Shown piece by piece: positions 1,601 through 46,356 of a DNA stretch of 64,000 bases. The notes beneath the pieces were generated by a model. The model was not told the DNA's origin, did not search any database, and saw only the letters and a program-made list of their open reading frames with translations. The translations under genes and the position numbers were made by a program. Every line of letters begins with the position of its first letter. The stretch's first letter is position 1. Source of the stretch: Escherichia coli (GTDB lineage: Bacteria; Pseudomonadota; Gammaproteobacteria; Enterobacterales; Enterobacteriaceae); the NCBI RefSeq assembly GCF_003790525.1, contig NZ_CP033633.1; one strand, given 5' to 3'.

Positions 1601-4600
1601 ATGAATAAGAATATACGAATTTTACAATTTCTGGTCAGTATACTTTATTCTGTGCAGTCTCATTTTTCTAGTGCGCAAACAATACAACTGAATGGTAATG
1701 GTATACCTGAAAGTATAACCAGGAGTATTACAGGTGTTGATGGAAACGCGGCGCTTAATATCAGCGTGCCGTATAAAACAAGTTATACTCAAAATATACT
1801 ATCTGTTGAAAGCAGTATTAACATCAAAGGAGGAACAAGCAATACATCAATCGGTGGTGCAGGTGTCTACGGTGAAAACTTTACGCTAAATAATAATGGT
1901 AGTGTTTGGGGAGGAGATGGATATAATGGTGGAATTGCTGTTAGTGGCAACAAAATATCTATAAACAATTACAGAAATGTATATGGGGGTAATGGTCTTG
2001 GTGGCTCAGGAAGTAGCGGAGGTGCAGGGTTAAGCGGGGATGATATTATAGTTGATAATTACAGAAGTATATACGGAGGTGATGATGTAGGTGGGACAGG
2101 TGGTTCCGGTGTAACCGGTAGCAATATTACAGTGCATAATTCCGGAGGAATATTGGGCGGTAATGGCGTAAACGGTGGTGATGGTATTAATGGTAGTAAT
2201 CTTTTCATTACTAACGACAACATGATATCTGGAGGATATGGAATAAAACAAGGGGGAGATGCTATTTCTGGAAATCAAATCACTTTGAATAATAACGGTA
2301 TTGTTCAGGGGGGATATGGCCCCGACGGTGGTTGCTCTGTTTATGGAGAAGATATCCATATTAATAATCATGGTAATCTTTCAGGATTATATAATAGCCA
2401 AAAAGATGCTTATAATACATCAATAATTTTTTCTGGCGGGTATAATTCATTAGATATTTATTCAGATTCTGTGATTAATGGTGATATTAAACTAGCTAGT
2501 ATACCTGTTAATGGTACAAATGAATTAATTATTAAGAACATCAATAACGCAACAGCAATTAATGGTGGGCTAATGATTGGGAATGGCTCATCTGTTTATC
2601 TGTCAGGCAAGAACTCCATTTTTAACGGAAATATAAGTATTGATGAAGACGCATCTATGAACCTGTCTGTAGGAAATGCTAATGTTCACGCAAATACTAT
2701 TACATTAAAAAGTGATTCATGGCTTAATATAGACACATCAATTAAGAACTGGACTCAGGACTATTACACATTATTGTCGTCAGACACAGGTATCTCGATC
2801 GCTGATAATAGTCACATTGTACAATACAATGTATTACTGACAGAAGGTGCTGAAAGTTATGTTTATACGTCTTTAAATGACGACGATAACAAACTGATAT
2901 CCATGCTGAGATGGAATAATACAAAAGGGATGGGATATGGAACCTTTAATATAGAAAAAGATGCCACTCTGAACATAGGCGTTTCTCTTTCCGATAATCT
3001 TTCACCTTTATTATATGATGGCTGGGACGGCAAAAGTCTGACAAAATCAGGTAATGGTACTCTTATACTTTCTGCAACAAACAATTATACAGGAAATACA
3101 GAGGTTAAATCTGGCGTATTAATTCTTGCTGCACCTGATGCTCTTGGTCGGACTGAGTATTTATATTTATCCCGTGGCGCAGAACTGGATATGAATGGGT
3201 ATCCTCAGACAATAAGCAAACTACTGACGGCTGCAGGCTCTGTGCTGAACATTCATGGCGGAAGTCTGATACTGAATAATGGAGGAGAATCTGCAGGTAC
3301 TATTGCAGGGGATGGTTCTCTGAACATAAATGGGGGAATGCTTGATATAACGGGTAATAATCGTAATTTTTCCGGTGTTTTTACCGTGAATAAGGGGGCT
3401 CATTTGGCTGTATCCACGGCTGATAATCTGGGGACAGCCTTTGTTGATAACTATGGCACATTAACTCTGAACAGTACATCAGCATGGCAGCTTACCAACA
3501 ATATCAGTGGTTATGGTAATGTTCGCAAGACGGGAGCAGGTGCACTGAACATTAGCGATAACGCAAAATGGAGCGGGATGACAGATATTATTCAGGGGAC
3601 AGTGATACTGGGGAACGCAGATTCACCGGTGATGCTCGGCAGTAACCAGGTCATTGTTGAAGAGCAGGGCAAACTCTCCGGGTTTGGGGGCGTTGCAGGA
3701 AATCTGAGCAATAGTGGTATAGTCGATCTCACTACATATATGCCGGGTAATATACTGACTGTCGGAGGGAATTACACTGGCAGAAATGGACTTATTCTCC
3801 TCCAGACAGAAACAGGTGGTGACAATTCGAAAACAGATCGTCTGGTGATTAAAGGTAATGCCAGTGGCCGTACCCGTGTCGCTGTTACTCAGGCCGGTGG
3901 TTCTGGTGCAGAGACACTTAATGGGATTGAAGTGATTCACGTCAGTGGCAATGCTGATAATGCTGAATTCATTCAGACGGAACGTATTACAGCCGGAGCT
4001 TATGATTACATACTGAAACGTGGTCAGGGGATTAACAGCACTAACTGGTATCTGATTAGCAGAAAAGACATTCCTGTACCACAACCTGAAGCTGTACCGG
4101 AAAACCATGATAATAATTTGCGTCCTGAGGCAGGTAGCTATGTTGCCAGTATTGCTGCTGCAAATAATCTGTTTGTAACGAATCTGTATGAACGACAGGG
4201 ACAGGAGTTGTATATCAGCCACATGACAGGAGAAGAAAATGAAGCAGGTATCTGGATGTATAATAAAGGAAAACATAATCGCTGGCGTGACAACAGTAGT
4301 CAGCTGAGAACCCGGGGGAATAGCTACGTTGTGTTAATAGGGGGAGATATAGCTCAGTGGAGCCTGAATGGTACCGATCGCTGGCATACAGGTATGATGG
4401 CTGGCTATGGTCATAATAATAACAGTACGAATGCCCTGAGCACCGGATACCATTCGGAAGGAAGAATGAATGGATACACAGCGGGTCTTTATGCAACATG
4501 GTATGCCAATGATGAAACACACAATGGTTCTTATCTTGATAGCTGGCTGCAATACAGCTGGTTTGATAATCATATAAATGGAGAACGGCTGCCTGCTGAG

Positions 4601-26955: not shown

Positions 26956-27282
26956 ATGACTAAAAATACTCGTTTTTCCCCCGAAGTCCGTCAGAGGGCG
27001 ATTCGTATGGTTCTGGAAAGTCAGGGCGAATATGACTCACAGTGGGCGGCAATTTGTTCCATTGCCCCAAAGATTGGCTGTACACCGGAGACTCTGCGTG
27101 TCTGGGTACGCCAGCATGAGCGGGATACCGGAGGCGGTGATGGCGGGCTCACCACCGCTGAACGTCAGCGTCTGAAAGAGCTGGAACGTGAAAATCGTGA
27201 ACTGCGCCGCAGTAACGATATCCTTCGCCAGGCTTCCGCTTATTTTGCGAAGGCGGAGTTCGACCGCCTCTGGAAAAAGTGA
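26956..27282 (+). CDS. IS629 transposase OrfA
   Basis: Identical protein to 7383-7709. Confidence 0.85.
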
Positions 27283-28169
27283 TGCCACTGCTGGATAAGC
27301 TGCGTAAGCTGTACGGGGTCGGACCGGTATGCAGTGAACTACATATTGCCCCGTCAACGTATTACCACTGTCAGCAACAGCGACATCATCCTTATAAACG
27401 CAGTGCCCGTGCGCAGCGCGATGACTGGCTGAAGAAAGAGATACTGCGCGTATACGATGGGAATCATCAGGTATATGGTGTGCGTAAAGTCTGGCGTCAG
27501 TTGTTACGGGAAGGAATCAGGGTAGCCAGATGTACAGTGGCGCGCCTCATGGCGGTTATGGGACTTGCCGGTGTTCTCCGGGGTAAAAAGGTCCGCACTA
27601 CCGTCAGCCGGAAAGCCGTTGCCGCAGGCGACCGCGTAAACCGTCAGTTTGTGGCAGAACGTCCTGACCAGTTGTGGGTGGCTGATTTTACTTACGTCAG
27701 CACATGGCAGGGGGTCGTCTATGTGGCGTTCATCATTGATGTGTTTGCCGGATACATCGTGGGGTGGCGGGTCTCATCGTCTATGGAAACGACATTCGTG
27801 CTGGATGCTCTGGAGCAGGCGTTATGGGCCCGTCGACCGTCCGGCACAGTCCATCACAGTGATAAAGGTTCTCAGTATGTATCGCTGGCCTACACACAGC
27901 GGCTTAAGGAAGCCGGATTACTGGCATCAACAGGAAGTACTGGTGACTCGTATGACAACGCGATGGCGGAGAGCATCAATGGCCTTTACAAAGCGGAGGT
28001 AATACACCGTAAGAGCTGGAAAAACCGGACAGAAGTGGAGCTGGCCACACTCACGTGGGTGGACTGGTATAACAATCGACGATTGCTGGAAAGGCTGGGC
28101 CATATCCCACCGGCAGAAGCAGAAAAAGCTTATTATGCTTCCATCGGAAACGATGATCTGGCAGCCTGA
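27279..28169 (+). CDS. IS629 transposase OrfB
   Basis: Identical protein to 6496-7386. Confidence 0.85.
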
Positions 28170-28559
28170 GTTCACAGATAAAACACTCTCCAGGAAACCC
28201 GGGGCGGTTCAAACACCCTTTCTTCATCCATCCTGCGCGCTCCATCTGATAATGTTCTGACAGGTAAAAATCAAATTCTGTATGATTTTTGTGTTATCGA
28301 TTTATGATAATATCAGATATTTTTTCATTACTTATGATTAAAATCATATCTAATATGAATTTATGTGTATTGCTTAATTATCATATCACCTGCCCGTTTC
28401 CCGCCGCGCAGATCCGGTTTCCGGCTGAAGTGGATCCAGACCTGATTTGTTGCTGAGTATCGGTAAAAGTGCGGCTTATAAGCTATTCTGAAACATGGCA
28501 AGTGAATCTGGGCTGTATAATTCCGGCAAGTGTCATCTGTATTTAAAGGACGTGTGAGT

Positions 28560-29012
28560 ATGAAATTTATGGAATGTGCTGTCCGGGATGTGATTTATGG
28601 GACCAATGTCCGTCTTGTCAAACCGGTCAACATTTATGAATGTGAACTCGGGGACAATGTGTTTGTCGGCCCCTTCGTTGAGATACAGAAAGGCTGTGTC
28701 ATTGGTAGTGGAAGTCGGATACAGTCGCACACGTTTATTTGTGAGAACGTAACACTGGGGGAGAAGTGCTTCATTGGTCATAACGTGACGTTCGCCAACG
28801 ATCTGTTTCGTTCAGGAGCACCAGATCCGTCACCGGATAACTGGATCAGCATTACCCTGGGGGATTCGGTTACTGTTGGCAGTGGAGCCATTATTCTGTC
28901 TCCGTATATATGCAGCGGAGCTGTTATTGGTGCGGGTTCAGTTGTGGTAAAACCGATTGAGAACAAAGGCATTTATGCAGGAAACCCGGCAAGACTGCTC
29001 AGAATATTATGA
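28560..29012 (+). CDS. hexapeptide-repeat (left-handed beta-helix) acyl/acetyltransferase
   Basis: Repeated [LIV]G-x4 hexads (VFVGPF, CVIGSG, VTLGEK, CFIGHN, VTVGSG, AVIGAG); SD aagga upstream of ATG 28560. Confidence 0.7.
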   Translation: MKFMECAVRDVIYGTNVRLVKPVNIYECELGDNVFVGPFVEIQKGCVIGSGSRIQSHTFICENVTLGEKCFIGHNVTFANDLFRSGAPDPSPDNWISITLGDSVTVGSGAIILSPYICSGAVIGAGSVVVKPIENKGIYAGNPARLLRIL

Positions 29013-29018
29013 AAAAGA

Positions 29019-29045
29019 AAAGGGCCGTTACTGGCCCTTTTTATC
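29019..29045 (+). terminator. rho-independent terminator (GGGCC-N6-GGCCC + T-run)
   Basis: aaagggccgttactggcccttttta directly after the acetyltransferase stop. Confidence 0.5.
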
Positions 29046-29225
29046 AGAGGTAGGTCTGTGAATACGGCAGGTGTACAGAAATCGACTGCCGGGGATCGAT
29101 TTCCAGGGCCGCCCGGTATTCTGCGTCAGTGATATCACCTTTTTTCGGTAAATAACCGAGAGCATCGTTTCCCAGCCCTGACAGTATGCGTATTCTGGCG
29201 ATCCGGAAATCAAACAGGCTGTCCA

Positions 29226-29408
29226 TCATACCATGCTCCGGAAATGCGGGAGGAGTGGCCAGATAGGCAGGTTTGACCATTGTCCTAAAGTGCCTTCAGG
29301 AAGAGATAATCGGGAAGCGCCTTCACTGATCGAAAGTTGATTTTCAAGAACCGTTCTGACAGCTTCGGCTTTGAACTCTTTAGAGTAACGTTGGGTTTTT
29401 CTGCTCAT
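29226..29408 (-). pseudogene. IS3-family transposase OrfA N-terminal remnant
   Basis: MSRKTQRYSKEFKAEAVRTVLENQLSISEGASRLSLPEGTLGQW then frame lost. Confidence 0.5.
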
Positions 29409-30389
29409 TATTAGCTCCTTCTGATGCCATTCTATTTCAGGAAGGAGTGTCCGTTAAACCCAGGCTACCTCATAGTTCATTTTCTGTTGATGCGCTGAAG
29501 ATCATTTCATTCAAAATACTGACATCTTTCATAAAGACCTCCATTTTATGTCGGGGAAAAATAAAGCACAGATAAACCATATTTTCACATTTAATTTACA
29601 AATTAGTGGTATCAGTCACAAATAACTTACAGGTCCGGTAATATCGGTCTGTTAGTGATATTTACTGAAAATGATGGAAAGATATTGATAACGTGGTTGC
29701 CATAACCAATGCTTCAGGGAAGCCGATATGGTTAATGTCATTACAATCGTCGCCACAGTTGCCTGTGTATCCGGATATTTGAAATGGATCTTCCAGAAGC
29801 GGACTCGGGTAGTATCTTCATGGTTTGGCTTTCAGCAGATCTGTGACTCTGCTATTTATTGATGAATATGACCTTTACAATTCCAGTTATTGTTCTGATT
29901 GCAATAATCACTTCATCACAATAATCCACCATTTTTTGTGATTATCTGGCAATAATTTTCTTTTCTGCTCCAGAGATCCGAAAACTCCTGGTTCCGGATC
30001 CGCGGATCCTTCGCTGCCGCCCGCTGGTCCGCTTTCACAGGATGTGGTGTCCCGCTCCGCTGACATGACACTGTATGTTGTGTTTCTTCCCGTGTTCCCG
30101 AGCCAGTCATCAGCGGCAGAAAAGATCGCTTCGCTTATTCACTGATCCTGATTCACTTCCGGAAAATCCTGAATCCGATAAAAATCGGATCATAGAAAAA
30201 CAGTCATCCTGTAATTTATCATGGTTACTACATTGCAGGTTATTATTGTCATGATTACTTTTCAGGTCAGTTATTGATGGTGGTGTTAATAATAGCTGGA
30301 TAACAATATTCCGTTGCCGGAGGCATGTTATAGCGTAATACTGGTGTATACTTAATGGTGTACAGAGAGTATGTAAGATGAGGTGCATT

Positions 30390-30915
<526 letters not shown>

Positions 30916-31725
30916 ATGTCAGGCTCCGTTATACACAGCCAGTCTGCAGCCATGGTACCGGCAGTGTATTCTGCCGGACAGTCTGCACAACTTCCTGTTG
31001 CCATTGATTATCCGGCAGCTCTGGCACTCCGCCAGATGTCGATGGTTCATGATGAACTGCCGAAATATCTGCTGGCTCCCGAGGTGAGTGCCCTGCTTCA
31101 TTATGTCCCGGATCTGCGCCGCAAGATGCTGCTGGCCACTCTGTGGAACACCGGCGCGCGTATTAATGAAGCACTAGCGCTGACGCGGGGGGATTTTTCG
31201 CTCACGCCTCCGTATCCGTTTGTGCAGCTGGCCACTCTGAAGCAGCGGACAGAAAAAGCCGCCAGGAGGGCAGGAAGGATGCCCGCCGGTCAGCAGACTC
31301 ACCGTCTGGTTCCGCTCTCCGACGCCTGGTACGTCAGCCAGCTGCAGACGATGGTGGCCACACTGAAAATCCCCATGGAACGGCGTAATAAACGAACAGG
31401 CAGGACAGAGAAAGCGCGGATCTGGGAAGTGACGGACAGAACGGTCAGGACCTGGATTGGGGAGGCGGTTGCCGCCGCTGCTGCTGACGGTGTGACGTTC
31501 TCTGTTCCGGTCACACCACATACGTTCCGCCATTCCTATGCGATGCACATGCTGTATGCCGGTATACCGCTGAAAGTTCTGCAAAGCCTGATGGGACATA
31601 AGTCCATCAGTTCAACGGAAGTCTACACGAAGGTTTTTGCGCTGGATGTGGCTGCCCGGCACCGGGTGCAGTTTGCGATGCCTGAGTCCGATGCGGTCAC
31701 AATGCTGAAAAACAGACATGTATAA
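30916..31725 (+). CDS. resD: ResD tyrosine site-specific recombinase (multimer resolvase)
   Basis: 269-aa ORF directly after ccdB as in F; C-terminal HxxR...Y catalytic region (HTFRHSYAMHMLYAG...STEVYTKV). Confidence 0.8.
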   Translation: MSGSVIHSQSAAMVPAVYSAGQSAQLPVAIDYPAALALRQMSMVHDELPKYLLAPEVSALLHYVPDLRRKMLLATLWNTGARINEALALTRGDFSLTPPYPFVQLATLKQRTEKAARRAGRMPAGQQTHRLVPLSDAWYVSQLQTMVATLKIPMERRNKRTGRTEKARIWEVTDRTVRTWIGEAVAAAAADGVTFSVPVTPHTFRHSYAMHMLYAGIPLKVLQSLMGHKSISSTEVYTKVFALDVAARHRVQFAMPESDAVTMLKNRHV

Positions 31726-31862: not shown

Positions 31863-32138
31863 GTGGCTTCTGTTTCTATCAGCTGTCCCTCCTGTTCAGC
31901 TACTGACGGGGTGGTGCGTAACGGCAAAAGCACCGCCGGACATCAGCGCTATCTCTGCTCTCACTGCCGTAAAACATGGCAACTGCAGTTCACTTACACC
32001 GCTTCTCAACCCGGTACGCACCAGAAAATCATTGATATGGCCATGAATGGCGTTGGATGCCGGGCAACCGCCCGCATTATGGGCGTTGGCCTCAACACGA
32101 TTTTCCGCCATTTAAAAAACTCAGGCCGCAGTCGGTAA
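31863..32138 (+). CDS. insA: IS1 InsA
   Basis: Near-identical to other insA copies. Confidence 0.9.
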
Positions 32139-32560
32139 CCTCGCGCATACAGCCGGGCAGTGACGTCATCGTCTGTGCGGAAATGGACGAACAGTGGGGC
32201 TATGTCGGGGCTAAATCGCGCCAGCGCTGGCTGTTTTACGCGTATGACAGGCTCCGGAAGACGGTTGTTGCGCACGTATTCGGTGAACGCACGATGGCGA
32301 CGCTGGGGCGTCTTATGAGCCTGCTGTCACCCTTTGACGTGGTGATATGGATGACGGATGGCTGGCCGCTGTATGAATCCCGCCTGAAGGGAAAGCTGCA
32401 CGTAATCAGCAAGCGATATACGCAGCGAATTGAGCGGCATAACCTGAATCTGAGGCAGCACCTGGCACGGCTGGGACGGAAGTCGCTGTCGTTCTCAAAA
32501 TCGGTGGAGCTGCATGACAAAGTCATCGGGCATTATCTGAACATAAAACACTATCAATAA
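32057..32560 (+). CDS. insB: IS1 InsB
   Basis: Near-identical to other insB copies. Confidence 0.85.
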
Positions 32561-32570
32561 GTTGGAGTCA

Positions 32571-33482
32571 TTACCAACTATTACTGTCCAGAATCTCCAC
32601 GGCTGAAATATATAGCGGAGAAACTCCACTGCCTTCAGGAAAACGGACAATGACATCATGATTATTACTGGACATCGTATAACCAGCCTCAACATAATTC
32701 CCTGTCTCAGAAATAACGCCATCTTCCTGGATTTCGGGATTAGACCGAACTGGAGTATTCATCTGACCCACACTTAATACCAGGTCCGGTAGATTTGGTG
32801 ATACAGGGGCACTGTAAACATCTTTAATATTGGTTCCCGGACGACTCCGGTCCGGAACTGGAACGGCATCCACTACTGGCACTGTCATCGGAATACCTCC
32901 GATAATAGCCATATATTGTGTACCATTCTGCATAAGGTCCGTCAGACGATATTTTACCGGTACATTATTACCCGCTGCTGGTAACTGGCTGGCAGGGATA
33001 TCCGTTACCTGCTCCAGTTGCTGTGTAACCATAAGACGAATAATTTTTTGCTCATTTCCGGAAGCAGGCTCCAGACGGGCAAAAGAAACAGCAGCCGGGC
33101 GAGACGGTTCTGGCAAACCACCACGTAAACCATTTTCAAGAACTGTTCGTGCAGCGGAAACTTTCTCGTTTCCCCAGGGGCTATGCACACTGACAGACCA
33201 TCCCGACCAGTCTCCCTCTTCAAGTTCCTTATCAAGAATAATCCGGCGAATAATTCCAGGAAAAAGAACACTTTGTACAAGTGCGATACCTTGTGGGCTG
33301 TAATCCCCCCATCCCGGAGGCATGGATGGAGCGAGACCTGATGAGCCTCCGGGTTTCACATCACCGCCCGGAATTCGTCCTGTTGACGGCCACACAACCA
33401 TTGTGTCCCCGTAATCAATACCTTCTGTCGGTACACTACCTTCATTATCACTCATAGAAAACCTCTTTGACTTTAAAAACAA
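32571..33482 (-). pseudogene. unknown Gly/Pro-rich protein, C-terminus cut by IS1 (stop codon supplied by the IS1 end)
   Basis: 303-aa ORF MSDNEGSVPTEGIDYGDTMVVWPSTGRIPGGDVKPGG...; reading frame runs into the IS1 terminus. Confidence 0.4.
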
Positions 33483-33669
33483 TCAATTAAAATTAAATAC
33501 TGTACATATAACCACTGGTTTTATGTACAGATCAAAAATTACGCCGCTGTGTTTTCTCTGTCAAGACTGTGGATTTCAATTTTTGTGAAAACGATCAAAA
33601 AACAGGCACTCACACCACGTGCTATTCTCGCCTGATACCACAAAAAACTGCACAAGCATTACTGGTCAG

Positions 33670-34129
33670 GACGGCAGGAAGAATGCCCGCCGGCCAGCAG
33701 ACTCACCGGCTGGTTCCGCTCTCGGACTCCTGGTACGTCAGCCAGCTGCAGACGATAGTGGCCACACTGAAAATCCCCATGGAACGGCGTAATAAACGAA
33801 CAGGCAGGACAGAGAAAGCGCGGATCTGGGAAGTGACGGACAGAACGGTCAGTACCTGGATTGGGGAAGCGGTTGCCGCCGCTGCCGCTGATGGTGTGAC
33901 GTTCTCTGCCCCGGTCACGCCACATACGTTCCGCCATTCCTATACGATGCACATGCTGTATGCCGGTATACCGCTGAAGGTCCTGCAGAGCCTGATGGGG
34001 CATAAGTCCATCAGCTCAACGGAAGTCTACACGAAGGTGTTTGCGCTGGATGTGGCTGCCCGGCACCGGGTGCAGTTTTCGATGCCTGAGTCCGATGCGG
34101 TCACAATGCTGAAAAACAGACACGCATAA
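33670..34129 (+). pseudogene. partial second copy of resD (3' ~60%), diverged
   Basis: Translation TAGRMPAGQQTHRLVPLSD...HTFRHSYTMHMLYAG... collinear with resD residues ~115-269. Confidence 0.7.
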
Positions 34130-34265: not shown

Positions 34266-34541
34266 TTATGTTAGTGTTTTTAAGTATTGCTCAAGGGCTA
34301 CTCTGACGATGGCACTTACATTTTTTGGATCTTTACCATTGCGTTTATTCCTCAATGCCAGATCTTCTATTGTGACAAGCATGCTTTCACCAAGAGAGAT
34401 TGTCGTCCGACATTGTTTTTCTGGTTCGGTTTTTTCCGGCGCGCCGTATGGTTTATCCGCAAGGCGCTGAGCCAGAGCCTCTGCTTGTTCTACCGTAACT
34501 GCAGCTCTGTTTAATGCTTGCTGGCTGGGTTTCTTCACCAT
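34266..34541 (-). CDS. small ribbon-helix-helix centromere-binding protein (ParB/ParG-like) of a type Ib partition system
   Basis: 91-aa ORF immediately downstream of and overlapping the ParA-like ATPase gene. Confidence 0.5.
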   Translation of the reverse strand: MVKKPSQQALNRAAVTVEQAEALAQRLADKPYGAPEKTEPEKQCRTTISLGESMLVTIEDLALRNKRNGKDPKNVSAIVRVALEQYLKTLT

Positions 34542-35179
34542 GGGCCAAATACCTCATTCATTAAATGTTCAATTTCTGCTTTGGCTGCTGTATTGTTCGT
34601 TTCTACTACACCGGTGCCGTTGCTCATGCAATCGCGATAGACTTTTCTGAAACAAATAACTGAATCCAGAACTTGAATTGTTGGGAATTCTTCAAGATAT
34701 TCAAGGAATTCTTTTCTCTCATTTCCCCTCAAAACCGGATTGGTTGTTGCCATACTTTGTAAACAATAAACCTTAAGTTCCGGGTTAAGGTTACGCATTG
34801 CGTCTATCTGTTGTTCTAGTTCTGTAAGAGTATCCAGATCTGGTTGAGAACACTGTAGTGGCGCAATTATTTGATGTGCGACAACTCCACTCGTTATGAA
34901 TTCCTTTGAGTTTCTTCCTGCGACATCCACTATTACATCATCGAACTTTTCATTCAGAGCCTGTAGTGTTTGTGTCAGATTATCAAATTTCTCAACAAGA
35001 GTTATTGCTGGTAAAAGTCCTGCAGCTTCTCGTTCCGCATGATGTTTTGCGGCTGTTCGTTGTAGATCTCCGTTTAACAGGCAGACTTCCCTTCCTTTAT
35101 TTGCGAGAGCAATAGCCAGGTTTGATGCAATGGTAGTTTTCCCTGAACCACCTTTGTTCCCACCAACTACAGTAATCAT
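34535..35179 (-). CDS. ParA/ParF-type partition ATPase (deviant Walker A)
   Basis: MITVVGGNKGGSGKTTIASNLAIALA...; 214 aa; divergent from parM. Confidence 0.8.
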   Translation of the reverse strand: MITVVGGNKGGSGKTTIASNLAIALANKGREVCLLNGDLQRTAAKHHAEREAAGLLPAITLVEKFDNLTQTLQALNEKFDDVIVDVAGRNSKEFITSGVVAHQIIAPLQCSQPDLDTLTELEQQIDAMRNLNPELKVYCLQSMATTNPVLRGNERKEFLEYLEEFPTIQVLDSVICFRKVYRDCMSNGTGVVETNNTAAKAEIEHLMNEVFGPW

Positions 35180-36780: not shown

Positions 36781-38052
36781 TCAGAATGAAGCAATGGGGA
36801 TCTCAGTCCATTGTGTTGTATACGAAGGCGAGAGCATTTCCCGTTTCATTTGCCATTCAGGGGCGGTTCCTCGCCCCGCAAACCACACTTTCCCTTTTCC
36901 CGACTGGTTCAGTTCATCGAGTGTTTTCATTAACTTTTCACTGTTTTTACGGGGCTGGATTTCATCAAATAATCCCGGCTGCGCTATACCCGATGGTGTG
37001 AAATCAGCCAGCATGACTCCTGCCTTCATATAGCGGTACCCTTCACGCCAGACATGGTTTAAGGCTCTGCATGCGGCGGCAATAATGTCCCGGCTGTCCT
37101 GTGTGGGCAATGGAAGCTTTTCCACAGCGGCATTGCTGTAACAGGGTTCTTTTACTGCAAAGGGGGATGTCCGTACAAATGTCGTCACCTGCCGGCAATA
37201 CTGACGCTCCCCACGTAGTTTCTCTGCGGCCCGCTCTGCATACTGAACAACAGCCTGGTGCATGGCATCTTTGTCTGTGATTCGTTCACCAAAACTGCGA
37301 CTACAGACAATCTGCTGTTTTGCCGGTGGTGCTTCTTCCAGGGATATGCAGGACTCGCCGTTGAGTTCGCGTACCGTACGCTCAAGAATGACGCTGAAGT
37401 TTTTCCGGATGAATGCCGTGTTAGCCTGCGCCAGCTGCAGTGCTGTGTTAATACCCAGCGCATTCAGCTTTTCCGTCAGTCTGCGTCCTACTCCCCAGAC
37501 CTCACCAACTGGCTGCAGTCCCAGTAGCTTCAAGATCCGATTACGGTTTTCTGCCGTCAGCGCGACCACACCGGAAAACTGTGGCCATTGCTTTGTTGCC
37601 CACTGTGCACTTTTAGCCAGCGTTTTTGTAGGCGCAATGCCCACCCCCATGGTGAGTCCTGTCCAGCTCTTTACCTGTTCCCTGAGCTGATGACCAAAAA
37701 ACTCCGGAGAGATGCAATGATTTATCCCCCGCAAATCAATAAACATTTCATCAATTGAGTAGGGCTCAACTGCGGGAGAAAGCGACTCCAGAACAGCCAT
37801 GACCCGTTGGCTCATGCTGTGGTACAGCGCATAATTGCTGGAAAATACATGTATTTTCTTCTCCAGGCGCATCTGTCTCACCTGAAACCAGGGCTGCCCC
37901 ATTCTGATGCCAAGGGCTTTTGCCTCCGGGCTGCGCGCGATCACACAGCCATCGTTATTGCTGAGTACGATGACCGGTTCGTTGCGAAGGTCCGGGCGGA
38001 AAACTTTTTCACATGAGGCGTAGAAACTGTTGATATCAGCCAGTGCAAACAT
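36781..38052 (-). CDS. Y-family DNA polymerase V catalytic subunit (UmuC/MucB/ImpB-like)
   Basis: 423 aa; MFALADINSFYASCEKVFRPDLRNEPVIVLSNNDGCVIARS... N-terminus. Confidence 0.85.
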   Translation of the reverse strand: MFALADINSFYASCEKVFRPDLRNEPVIVLSNNDGCVIARSPEAKALGIRMGQPWFQVRQMRLEKKIHVFSSNYALYHSMSQRVMAVLESLSPAVEPYSIDEMFIDLRGINHCISPEFFGHQLREQVKSWTGLTMGVGIAPTKTLAKSAQWATKQWPQFSGVVALTAENRNRILKLLGLQPVGEVWGVGRRLTEKLNALGINTALQLAQANTAFIRKNFSVILERTVRELNGESCISLEEAPPAKQQIVCSRSFGERITDKDAMHQAVVQYAERAAEKLRGERQYCRQVTTFVRTSPFAVKEPCYSNAAVEKLPLPTQDSRDIIAAACRALNHVWREGYRYMKAGVMLADFTPSGIAQPGLFDEIQPRKNSEKLMKTLDELNQSGKGKVWFAGRGTAPEWQMKREMLSPSYTTQWTEIPIASF

Positions 38053-38489
38053 CAGCGTAACTCCCGCGTCCTGTGTATCACGTGAGTGACAACACCAAAA
38101 ATACAGATGTTTTCCGGATACAGTGTGCGGAACTCCGGGCTGTCTGAAACCGGCTCCAGTGCCGGGCGTGGGCGCAACAGCAGTCGTTTGACGGTGAACT
38201 CACCGTCGATCTCAGCGATAACGATGTCCCCGTGTTGTGGTTTTTCGGCCCTGTCCACTACCAGCAGATCACCATTCTGCACGCCAGCCTGGTTCATCGA
38301 TTCACCGCTGGCGCGCAGAAAGAAGGTGGCTGCAGGTCTGCTGATGCAATAGCTGTTCAGATCCAGTTCCTGCTCAGCATAATCAGTGGCAGGCGAAGGA
38401 AAACCGGCCTGGCAACGATCGGCAAACAACGGTCGCACGTAACTGTCATCGCCTGAAGGGTCAGCCGGACGGTGATAAACGGTACTCAT
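38052..38489 (-). CDS. UmuD/MucA/ImpA-like self-cleaving accessory subunit
   Basis: 145 aa; ...ASGESMNQAGVQNGDLLVVDRA...GDIVIAEIDGEFTVKRL (Ser/Lys peptidase fold). Confidence 0.8.
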   Translation of the reverse strand: MSTVYHRPADPSGDDSYVRPLFADRCQAGFPSPATDYAEQELDLNSYCISRPAATFFLRASGESMNQAGVQNGDLLVVDRAEKPQHGDIVIAEIDGEFTVKRLLLRPRPALEPVSDSPEFRTLYPENICIFGVVTHVIHRTRELR

Positions 38490-45640: not shown

Positions 45641-46356
45641 GCGCACGTTCACGGGCACTGATCCCCCTCAGCGCAGAACAACAGGCCGCCATGCAGGCTG
45701 TGGCTGTCACCGAACAACGTCGTCGTCAGGGACGCACACTTTCAGCATGGCCTTATGCCAGCGCTTTCTTTCGCTGCCTGAATGGCAGTCGCCGGATTTC
45801 GCTGACCGATCTCCGCTTTTTTGCCCCTGCGCTGACGAAGGAGGAATTTCATGGCAACCGTCTCCTGTGGCTGGCTGCCGTGGATAAACTGATTGAAAGT
45901 TTTGGTGAAGTCTGTGTTCTTCCCCTGCCATCCGATGCGGGGCATCGTCTGTTCCCGTCTGTTCCTTTTCGTGAAGGTGAGCGTCGTCGTCAGAAAACCA
46001 CGCTGACAGAGCAGAAATACAGCCGCCAGCGGGAACGTGAGGCAGAACGACGGGAACTGGAATACCAGACATGTTTTGCTCAGGCGCAGATTGACCTTGC
46101 GTTTCATACTCCCGCCACGGTCGGAAGCTGGTTGTCCCGCTGGTCTGGTGCTGTTGAGGAGCATGATCTGGAAACGATTTTCTGGGGGTGGTGCGGGCGT
46201 TTTCCGTCACTGTCATCATTTGACCGGTTTTTCTGGCAGGAGGGACCACTCTGGCGGCTGATTTTTGAAGCCGGTGAGGCCGGTCGTGGTGCACCGGTAC
46301 AGGTACGTGCACTTGAGCAGTGGATGATCCCGAACAAGCTGGAGAACGTAATATGA
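45637..46356 (+). CDS. psiA: PsiA, plasmid SOS inhibition protein A
   Basis: 239-aa ORF overlapping psiB stop; [22 protein letters not shown]... Confidence 0.85.

Follow-up and report, generated by a model that had tools for sequence, protein, structure and literature searches.

The closest described counterpart of the locus considered here is the RepFIA region of the F plasmid, in which a 579-bp spacer between pifC and ccdA precedes ccdA-ccdB-resD-repE-sopAB. The RepFIA region of pEC958 begins 'with two rfsF sites ... followed by oriV-1, ccdAB, resD' (PMC4398462). The ccdAB genes are autoregulated from a long operator, which in F spans 113 bp and contains eight CcdA sites; its three central GTATAC palindromes, approximately 12 bp apart, are bound by chains of CcdA2-CcdB2 (PMC5389731). 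In IncI1 and IncR plasmids, rfsF is a site of gene-set switches and insertions (PMC8004404, PMC9412624).

The present locus lies in a 64,000-nucleotide stretch of Escherichia coli DNA (NZ_CP033633.1), hereafter the window, that is nearly identical to the IncK2/Z plasmid NZ_CP029742. A preliminary description of the window singled out positions 29440-30389, upstream of ccdA, as an AT-rich stretch with no convincing open reading frame that might be an origin remnant or the ccd promoter/operator region. The flagged region is genuine non-coding DNA, yet it is a mosaic instead of a single element: a known element (rfsF, a region homologous to oriV1, and the ccd promoter/operator) is fused to IS and pseudogene debris. 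Very probably, its right part functions as an rfsF/ResD site and ccd control region, its left part consists of relics, and no origin fires from it. Its AT-richness is true on average, with a GC content of 40.4% against 51.5% for the window (7th percentile of 950-bp windows), but is not uniform, because positions 30002-30154 have 56% GC inside the otherwise AT-rich interval. No annotated gene crosses the stretch in at least 10 near-identical RefSeq plasmids. The bulk is thus non-coding as described, with the exception of its left end, where 29440-29472 is the tip of an IS and 29473-29544 is the stub of a degT gene.

In a megablast search of positions 29409-30389 against 72,556 plasmids, the query splits into three independent pieces. 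Query nucleotides 1-64 match multi-copy IS sequence, nucleotides 65-592 are present only beside a gene for a DegT-family aminotransferase, and the remainder (from approximately 565 or 581 to 981) lies upstream of ccdA in hundreds of IncFIA plasmids at identities of up to 100%. The two left-hand pieces resolve into three features:

29281-29472, minus strand: outer-end fragment of an IS3-family element, 192 bp (from BLAST breakpoints and NF033516)
29473-29544, minus strand: 5' stub of a DegT/DnrJ/EryC1/StrS aminotransferase gene, 24 codons, MEVFMKDVSILNEMIFSASTENEL (intact in NZ_CP101276)
29545-29894, no strand assigned: orphaned leader or upstream region of a deleted sugar-modification operon, 350 bp (occurs only with the operon)

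An intact relative, plasmid pEC21Z014-112K (NZ_CP101276; segment L001), was used for local BLAST. Window positions 28842-29280 correspond to L001 1-440 and positions 29473-30500 to L001 5001-6028, with breakpoints at 29280/29281 and 29472/29473; therefore, 4.56 kb of a sugar-modification operon have been replaced by the 192-bp fragment 29281-29472. As read in L001, the deleted operon encodes DegT, HAD, Gfo/Idh/MocA, SemiSWEET and FAD oxidoreductase proteins. The degT gene is intact in the relative (L001 3834-5072, minus strand), while the window retains its first 24 codons, running from 29544 down to 29473, where the gene is cut by the IS. The terminal inverted repeat of the IS3-family fragment begins TGAGGTAGCC..., reading leftwards from 29472, and its orfA start codon is at 29408; the open reading frame at 29226-29408 matches NF033516 (IS3 family transposase) over amino acids 11-46. 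This 192-bp fragment is matched by multi-copy sequence of Shigella and E. coli plasmids and by 3303 E. coli records that carry the annotation 'transposase'. Every match to the leader at 29545-29894 (H11-H33) accompanies the sugar operon, and the leader has no annotated gene in relatives, no Rfam match and no promoter match beyond chance. The IS fragment, degT stub and leader are probably inert. For these left-hand ~530 bp, which are DNA unrelated to the origin region, the suggested origin remnant can be set aside.

The right-hand part (29895-30389) is 100% identical in hundreds of IncFIA plasmids. From position 29974, the window aligns with nucleotides 45,922-46,339 of F (NC_002483), upstream of ccdA-ccdB-resD, at 82% identity in the core described below and 54-63% elsewhere. 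The alignment to the ccd-upstream region of F that had been proposed as a check thus identifies ~420 bp (29974-30389) as homologous to the rfsF/oriV1/ccd spacer, and the alternative 'origin remnant or ccd promoter/operator' holds for this segment to the extent that it is the homolog of the pifC-ccdA spacer. The features of the right-hand part and the operon downstream are:

29895-29973, plus strand: left-flank block of the recombination site (72-81% identity, ~900 plasmids)
29974-30001, plus strand: rfsF core, 28 bp, with left arm AGATCCGAAAA, centre CTCCTG and right arm GTTCCGGATCC (assigned from conservation and coordinates)
30035-30083, plus strand: imperfect inverted repeat with arms 30035-30049 and 30069-30083 (from pairing across 15 lineages)
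30155-30165, no strand assigned: ACTTCCGGAAA, built on the palindrome TTCCGGAA (kept in 15 or more of 16 lineages)
30181-30191, plus strand: AAAATCGGATC half-site, oriented as the core right arm (TCGGATC invariant)
30205-30216, plus strand: CATCCTGTAATT block, in which 30206-30216 is ATCCTGTAATT (from the lineage alignment)
30247-30389, plus strand: ccd promoter/operator (from CcdA-type hexamers in the register of F)
30390-30608, 30610-30915 and 30916-31725, plus strand: ccdA, ccdB and the gene for a resD-type tyrosine recombinase, the downstream operon

The core has an 11-6-11 layout, forming an imperfect inverted repeat with GATC in each arm, and is the sole match in the 64 kb, where none is expected by chance. 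Phylogenetic footprinting was based on an alignment of 9, then 15-16 diverged lineages, including F, R64, IncR pF77_1, pLVPK, a pSLT-like plasmid, and Enterobacter and Serratia plasmids. The strongest block of the footprint is AGATCCGAAAA-N6-GT(T/C)(C/A)CGGATC, with AGATCCG and CGGATC of the core invariant in 16 lineages. Identification of this 28-bp core as rfsF is based on coordinates quoted in later papers, with NC_002483 (F) and NC_005014 as the reference records used. Nucleotide 45,922 of F, where the RepFIA homology of pEC958 starts, is the first base of the F core. Likewise, nucleotide 43,620 of R64 is the first base of AGATCCGAAAACCCCAAGTTACGGATCT, the R64 counterpart of the core, and this coordinate was used in a study of IncI1 plasmids as the start of the R64 'rfsF to yfcA' segment (PMC8004404). 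The rfsF sequence was not found in the supplement of PMC9412624.

Natural recombinants provide a strong indirect signal of recombination at this site. In pMB3176_2, the left module of the window (the sugar operon) is joined at the core to an R64-type right module, consisting of a hypothetical gene, resD and parA. In p675SK2_B, the right module of the window is fused to a vapBC left module. Both module switches map within 29985-29993, inside the core, in keeping with the published picture of rfsF in IncI1 and IncR plasmids (PMC8004404, PMC9412624). The hybrid centre of pMB3176_2, CCCCTG, cannot be derived simply by joining left and right parts of the window and R64 centres, which leaves the exact point of exchange uncertain. 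A related sequence lies further left in the window:

28410-28437, plus strand: second, variant rfsF-like site, AGATCCGGTTT CCGGCT GAAGTGGATCC (flank, arm and centre shared with p2RM8082)

This variant site lies at the left edge of the sugar cassette and is in direct orientation relative to the core at 29974; the cassette is therefore bracketed by two direct sites with differing centres. In p2RM8082, a complete rfsF with this left flank, arm and centre is joined to an R64-type (IncI-type) resD. The non-coding element flanking the 28410 site is carried by more than 5000 plasmids, with homology ending at the site. Junctions of the form AGATCCG(G/A)TTTC(C/T)GGCT-AAGTCGGATC are found in pJYC01A and pZ1323CEC0008-2.

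Conserved DNA extends to both sides of the core. The left-flank block lies directly left of the core in ~900 plasmids, while the genes beyond it are unrelated across plasmids (diguanylate cyclase, M20 peptidase, IS26, DUF3800, korC and sugar operon). Its motifs include GCAATAAT at 29901-29908 and 29949-29956, ACAATAAT at 29918-29925, TTTTTTGTG at 29932-29940 and a pyrimidine tract at 29957-29971, and are invariant or nearly so in the alignment. The short gattatc/aataatc repeats that the preliminary description placed near 29890-29950 are real, at positions 29901, 29918 and 29949 and, as inverted GATAATCACA, at 29938-29947, with the 'aataatc' repeats representing three conserved GCAAYAAT motifs of this block. 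As origin signals they do not hold up, being neither DnaA boxes nor iterons but part of the conserved block flanking rfsF. GCAAYAAT is not over-represented window-wide (6 found versus 6.2 expected); despite this chance-level 8-mer count, the repeats are kept in register across ~900 plasmids and are therefore not a chance pattern. F contains the proximal part of the block only (ACAACAAT and the pyrimidine tract); beyond it, in place of the distal part, lies the pifC promoter. The block at 29895-29973 is a candidate accessory sequence. Readings of the block as CRP or IHF sites were checked by eye and rejected.

To the right of the core, the inverted repeat at 30035-30083 includes, in its right arm (30069-30083), the near-invariant ATGTTGTGT. 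The block at 30155-30165, based on TTCCGGAA, resembles the core arm TTCCGGA, making ACTTCCGGAAA a candidate extra ResD-binding site. In other plasmids, rfsF-like junctions have a variant of the 30181-30191 half-site, AAGTCGGATCT, as their right arm. In the block at 30205-30216, GTAATT (30211-30216) is nearly invariant, and ATCCG pairs inversely with CGGAT of the preceding half-site in most lineages. The blocks at 30155, 30181 and 30206 all repeat the arm motif (C)CGGA(T), suggesting that they may be extra ResD-binding or regulatory sites. Homologs of 29960-30246 are present in 3563 plasmids. In nearly every inspected locus that has the full right-hand region, the region is followed by an operon whose last gene encodes a ResD-like integrase, with variable cargo between site and integrase (ccdAB or unrelated small genes); pifC was found next to the site in none of the inspected loci. 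Given that the site is conserved with a ResD-like integrase and without pifC, a role in recombination or regulation is favoured over one as an origin.

The last ~140 bp of the stretch bear out the other half of the original suggestion, the ccd promoter/operator. They contain three CcdA-type hexamers, GTATAC (30346-30351), GTGTAC (30358-30363) and GTATGT (30369-30374), which are 12 and 11 bp apart, as well as a ribosome-binding site, GAGG, at 30380-30383. The counterpart hexamers of F, ATATAC, GTATAC and GTATGT, have the same spacing and the same register. Only the three central CcdA sites are recognisable by eye in the window, and this operator part is common only to ccd-bearing lineages. A sigma-70 scan gave three promoter-like sites versus 3.5 expected, none of them informatively placed or above chance; placement of -35 and -10 elements by eye on the conserved blocks gave no convincing promoter, and a terminator scan gave none at an informative place. 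The downstream genes ccdA, ccdB and resD are all intact. CcdA and CcdB score above the curated cut-offs of their NCBIfam equivalogs and are 96% and 99% identical to their F counterparts, respectively. The 269-amino acid ResD shares 96% identity with its F counterpart over 266 amino acids and matches tyrosine-recombinase families, with GARINE, HTFRH and EVYTKV in its translation representing the catalytic Arg, His-x-x-Arg and Tyr motifs.

Together, these features are best accommodated if 29895-30389 serves as the cis-acting control region of an F (RepFIA)-type ccdA-ccdB-resD operon. Judging from the symmetry of the core and the positions of the junctions, ResD, which is encoded 0.9 kb downstream, would bind the two GATC-bearing inverted arms, with strand exchange predicted within the 6-bp centre or at its edge. 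Recombination of this kind would separate plasmid dimers into monomers and, in the course of evolution, exchange whole modules among plasmids. The GCAAYAAT repeats and pyrimidine tract on the left, and the inverted repeat, TTCCGGAA and TCGGATC half-sites on the right, would provide accessory or regulatory sites, and chains of CcdA2-CcdB2 would bind the GTATAC-like hexamers of the last ~140 bp and repress the operon. By the title of the 1986 paper of Lane et al., the D protein is reportedly both a transcription repressor and a resolvase.

A more far-reaching view, which is possible but on balance doubtful, is that rfsF-like sites and their flanks constitute a plasmid-wide cassette-exchange platform for ResD-family recombinases, with a role beyond dimer resolution. 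The conserved flanks of such a platform may comprise the GCAAYAAT block, the inverted-repeat hairpin and the extra GATC-bearing half-sites. If so, ccdAB, DUF3800 genes, ars operons and the sugar operon would be cargo bracketed by variant sites (here those at 28410 and 29974), and modules would be shuffled among IncF, IncI, IncK, IncR and Klebsiella plasmids. Dam methylation of the GATC present in every arm could then couple recombination to replication. No dissection of the accessory architecture of rfsF was found in the accessible literature, and the multi-part conserved architecture and cassette-like bracketing are the only aspects of the locus possibly worth more work.

It is very unlikely that the right-hand part instead acts as a working replication origin of the plasmid, equivalent to oriV1 (ori-1) of F. 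Such a role would be in keeping with its homology to the F spacer containing oriV1, with a GC-rich centre between AT-rich flanks, and with the conserved hairpin-forming inverted repeat, which could serve as a priming signal. It would also be compatible with the cluster of six GATC within 250 bp, the highest density in the 64 kb; three of these six lie in conserved recombinase-arm motifs, and the F counterpart holds three. However, oriV-1 is reported to require RepC and, from transposon mutagenesis, to be dispensable in pEC958 (PMC4398462), and tblastn searches with F PifC, RepE and SopA gave no match within the 64 kb. With the PifC/RepC initiator missing from the 64 kb, the region is unlikely to work as an origin. 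The DnaA boxes that might have marked an origin are at chance level, with no perfect TTATNCACA and two one-mismatch boxes in 981 bp, compared to 0.81 per kb window-wide; perfect boxes are also absent from the F spacer itself. No iterons or tandem repeats were detected in the stretch, only two-copy pairs of 10-13 nt, and matches to IHF sites are limited to one-mismatch matches, which are uninformative. Moreover, IncR, IncI1, IncFIB(K) and pSLT-type plasmids share these conserved blocks, and in the inspected loci a resD-like gene is always present and pifC is never beside the site. From these sequence comparisons, the stretch most likely does not fire as an origin here.

There is similarly little likelihood that the stretch conceals a small gene missed by annotation or a regulatory RNA with a defined structure, such as one that is built on the conserved hairpin and transcribed rightwards. 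With respect to RNA, 93% of cells in the inverted repeat are paired in 15 lineages, two pairs show compensatory changes, and G-U pairs favour the plus strand. The hairpin of the repeat is strong in the F, IncR and pSLT-type copies, and the F copy folds far better than shuffles, with energies of -30.5 kcal/mol as RNA (z -6.4) and -13.1 as DNA (z -3.95). For related sequences, the shuffle control is a lenient one. In contrast, the window copy is degenerate and no better than shuffles (z -0.7 as RNA and -0.4 as DNA), as is the Serratia copy, and an inverted repeat would be equally expected for a dimeric DNA-binding protein. An Rfam search of the stretch gave no match, and two hits obtained at a permissive threshold were noise only. 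With respect to a gene, the longest stop-free stretches in the interval are 56-92 codons, and open frames of up to 100 codons exist. Minus-strand open frames over the conserved part recur, but the frame shifts between lineages, with single-base indels between conserved blocks; these frames are therefore not coding, and a hidden gene was rejected on this basis. Scarcely more credible is the proposal that the whole stretch is ccd promoter/operator and upstream spacer with no other function, for although the operator hexamers lie directly upstream of ccdA and the autoregulated ccdAB operator is long (PMC5389731), that of F is merely 113 bp, the blocks at 29895-30246 are kept in plasmids that have other cargo before resD in place of ccdAB, and module junctions fall at the 28-bp core.

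Downstream of resD are IS1, a truncated colicin B gene, a second resD (33641-34117, 5'-truncated and of IncI/K type), parA and umuDC. Given the presence of this truncated IncI/K-type resD, the F-type copy is a secondary acquisition, and the block derived from F/ColBM seems to have entered at the rfsF of the backbone itself. The locus thereby shows how, at a ResD recombination site, an IncK-type plasmid gained a maintenance module derived from F/ColBM. Appropriate labels for annotation are IS fragment, degT pseudogene stub, rfsF and ccd promoter/operator; the stretch should not be annotated as an origin. More broadly, this ~350-bp non-coding architecture is found where modules meet in thousands of resistance and virulence plasmids of enterobacteria, and a precise map of its core and blocks helps to explain and predict plasmid mosaicism, a role already noted for IncI1 and IncR.

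Comparison with known systems places the locus closest to F (RepFIA), which has the same order of site, ccdA, ccdB and resD. The two differ to the left of the site, where F has pifC and its promoter and the window has the GCAAYAAT block and the sugar-operon relic, and within the core, where the centre is CCCCAA in F versus CTCCTG in the window and the right arm is GTTACGGATCT versus GTTCCGGATCC; pifC, repE and sop are not near the window site. The rsd-crs region of pSLT/pSDL2 (rfsF-ccdAB-rsdB of the Salmonella virulence plasmid) has a homologous core, AGATCCGAAAA AAGGTA GTCCCGGATCT, and shares the conserved blocks, ccdAB and the downstream integrase with the window, but differs in its centre and in having two extra genes between ccdB and the integrase. 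IncI1 plasmids (R64 and ColIb-P9) and IncR plasmids contain the same core family, right-hand blocks and downstream resD-like integrase, though in R64 the cargo between site and recombinase is a hypothetical gene rather than ccdAB. To our knowledge, no accessory proteins are known for the ResD/rfsF system. With Xer-cer/psi/dif and Cre-loxP, the likeness is in architecture only: inverted recombinase-binding arms about a short centre, here 11-6-11. The resemblance to cer and psi extends to ~200-350 bp of conserved flanking DNA as possible accessory sequence. Unlike at Xer sites, the recombinase would be the plasmid-encoded ResD, not XerCD, and the arms of the present site contain GATC.

The variant of rfsF, the F-type recombination site targeted, as inferred, by the plasmid-encoded tyrosine recombinase ResD, lies to the left of the sugar cassette, at the end of a conserved non-coding element:

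28216-28437, non-coding element, 72-88% conservation in >5000 plasmids
28410-28437, variant rfsF-like site, AGATCCGGTTT CCGGCT GAAGTGGATCC

In the comparison plasmid p2RM8082, the flank and arm of this site make up a complete rfsF adjoining an IncI-type resD. In other plasmids the immediate neighbour of the site is either an ars operon or a gene for an AAA ATPase. With the variant site at 28410-28437, the sugar cassette of the window therefore lies between two sites in direct orientation. The cassette is itself incomplete: an IS-associated deletion has removed 4.56 kb of the sugar operon, and the other edge of this deletion, at 28842-29280, consists of the 3' parts of two genes:

28530-29012 (+), acyltransferase gene (NeuD/PglB/VioB-like hexapeptide acetyltransferase), its 3' end at the edge
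within 28842-29280 (-), FAD-dependent oxidoreductase gene, of which a 3' remnant is left

Directly left of the conserved element is an apparently intact IS3-family element (26956-28169):

26956-27282, orfA
27279-28169, orfB

Around the rfsF core, the densest GATC cluster of the 64 kb is found at 29971-30220 (six in 250 bp), with a GATC spacing of 22 bp between the two core arms. Each conserved arm-like motif (AGATCCG, CGGATC and TCGGATC) contains a Dam site, and it may thus be speculated that ResD binding responds to methylation state. The conserved TCGGATC half-site is overlapped by a palindrome, ATCCGAT-AAAA-ATCGGAT (30173-30190), which F and most other lineages lack.

Downstream of ccd and the F-type resD come an IS1, a colicin remnant and a second resD, followed by parA and umuDC:

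31863-32138 and 32057-32560, ORFs of IS1, adjoining the colicin B-like gene
32571-33482 (-), truncated colicin B-like gene, identified by eye from N-terminal sequence
33641-34117 (+), second resD, 5'-truncated (aa 110-266, 91% identity to F ResD)
34535-35179 (-), parA
36781-38489 (-), umuDC

Because relatives carry cmi, cma and cbi between resD and cba, these genes appear to have been deleted by IS1 in the window. The truncated resD is probably the native copy of the IncI/K backbone, broken when the F/ColBM-type block was acquired.

In the plasmid NZ_CP033847 (L017), rfsF-type sites at 1120 and 3075 stand either side of a DUF3800 gene and a small gene, and in NZ_CP041394 (L015) the same pair directly follows the left block and half-core at 3076. 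The two genes look like a cassette mobilised via site-specific recombination.
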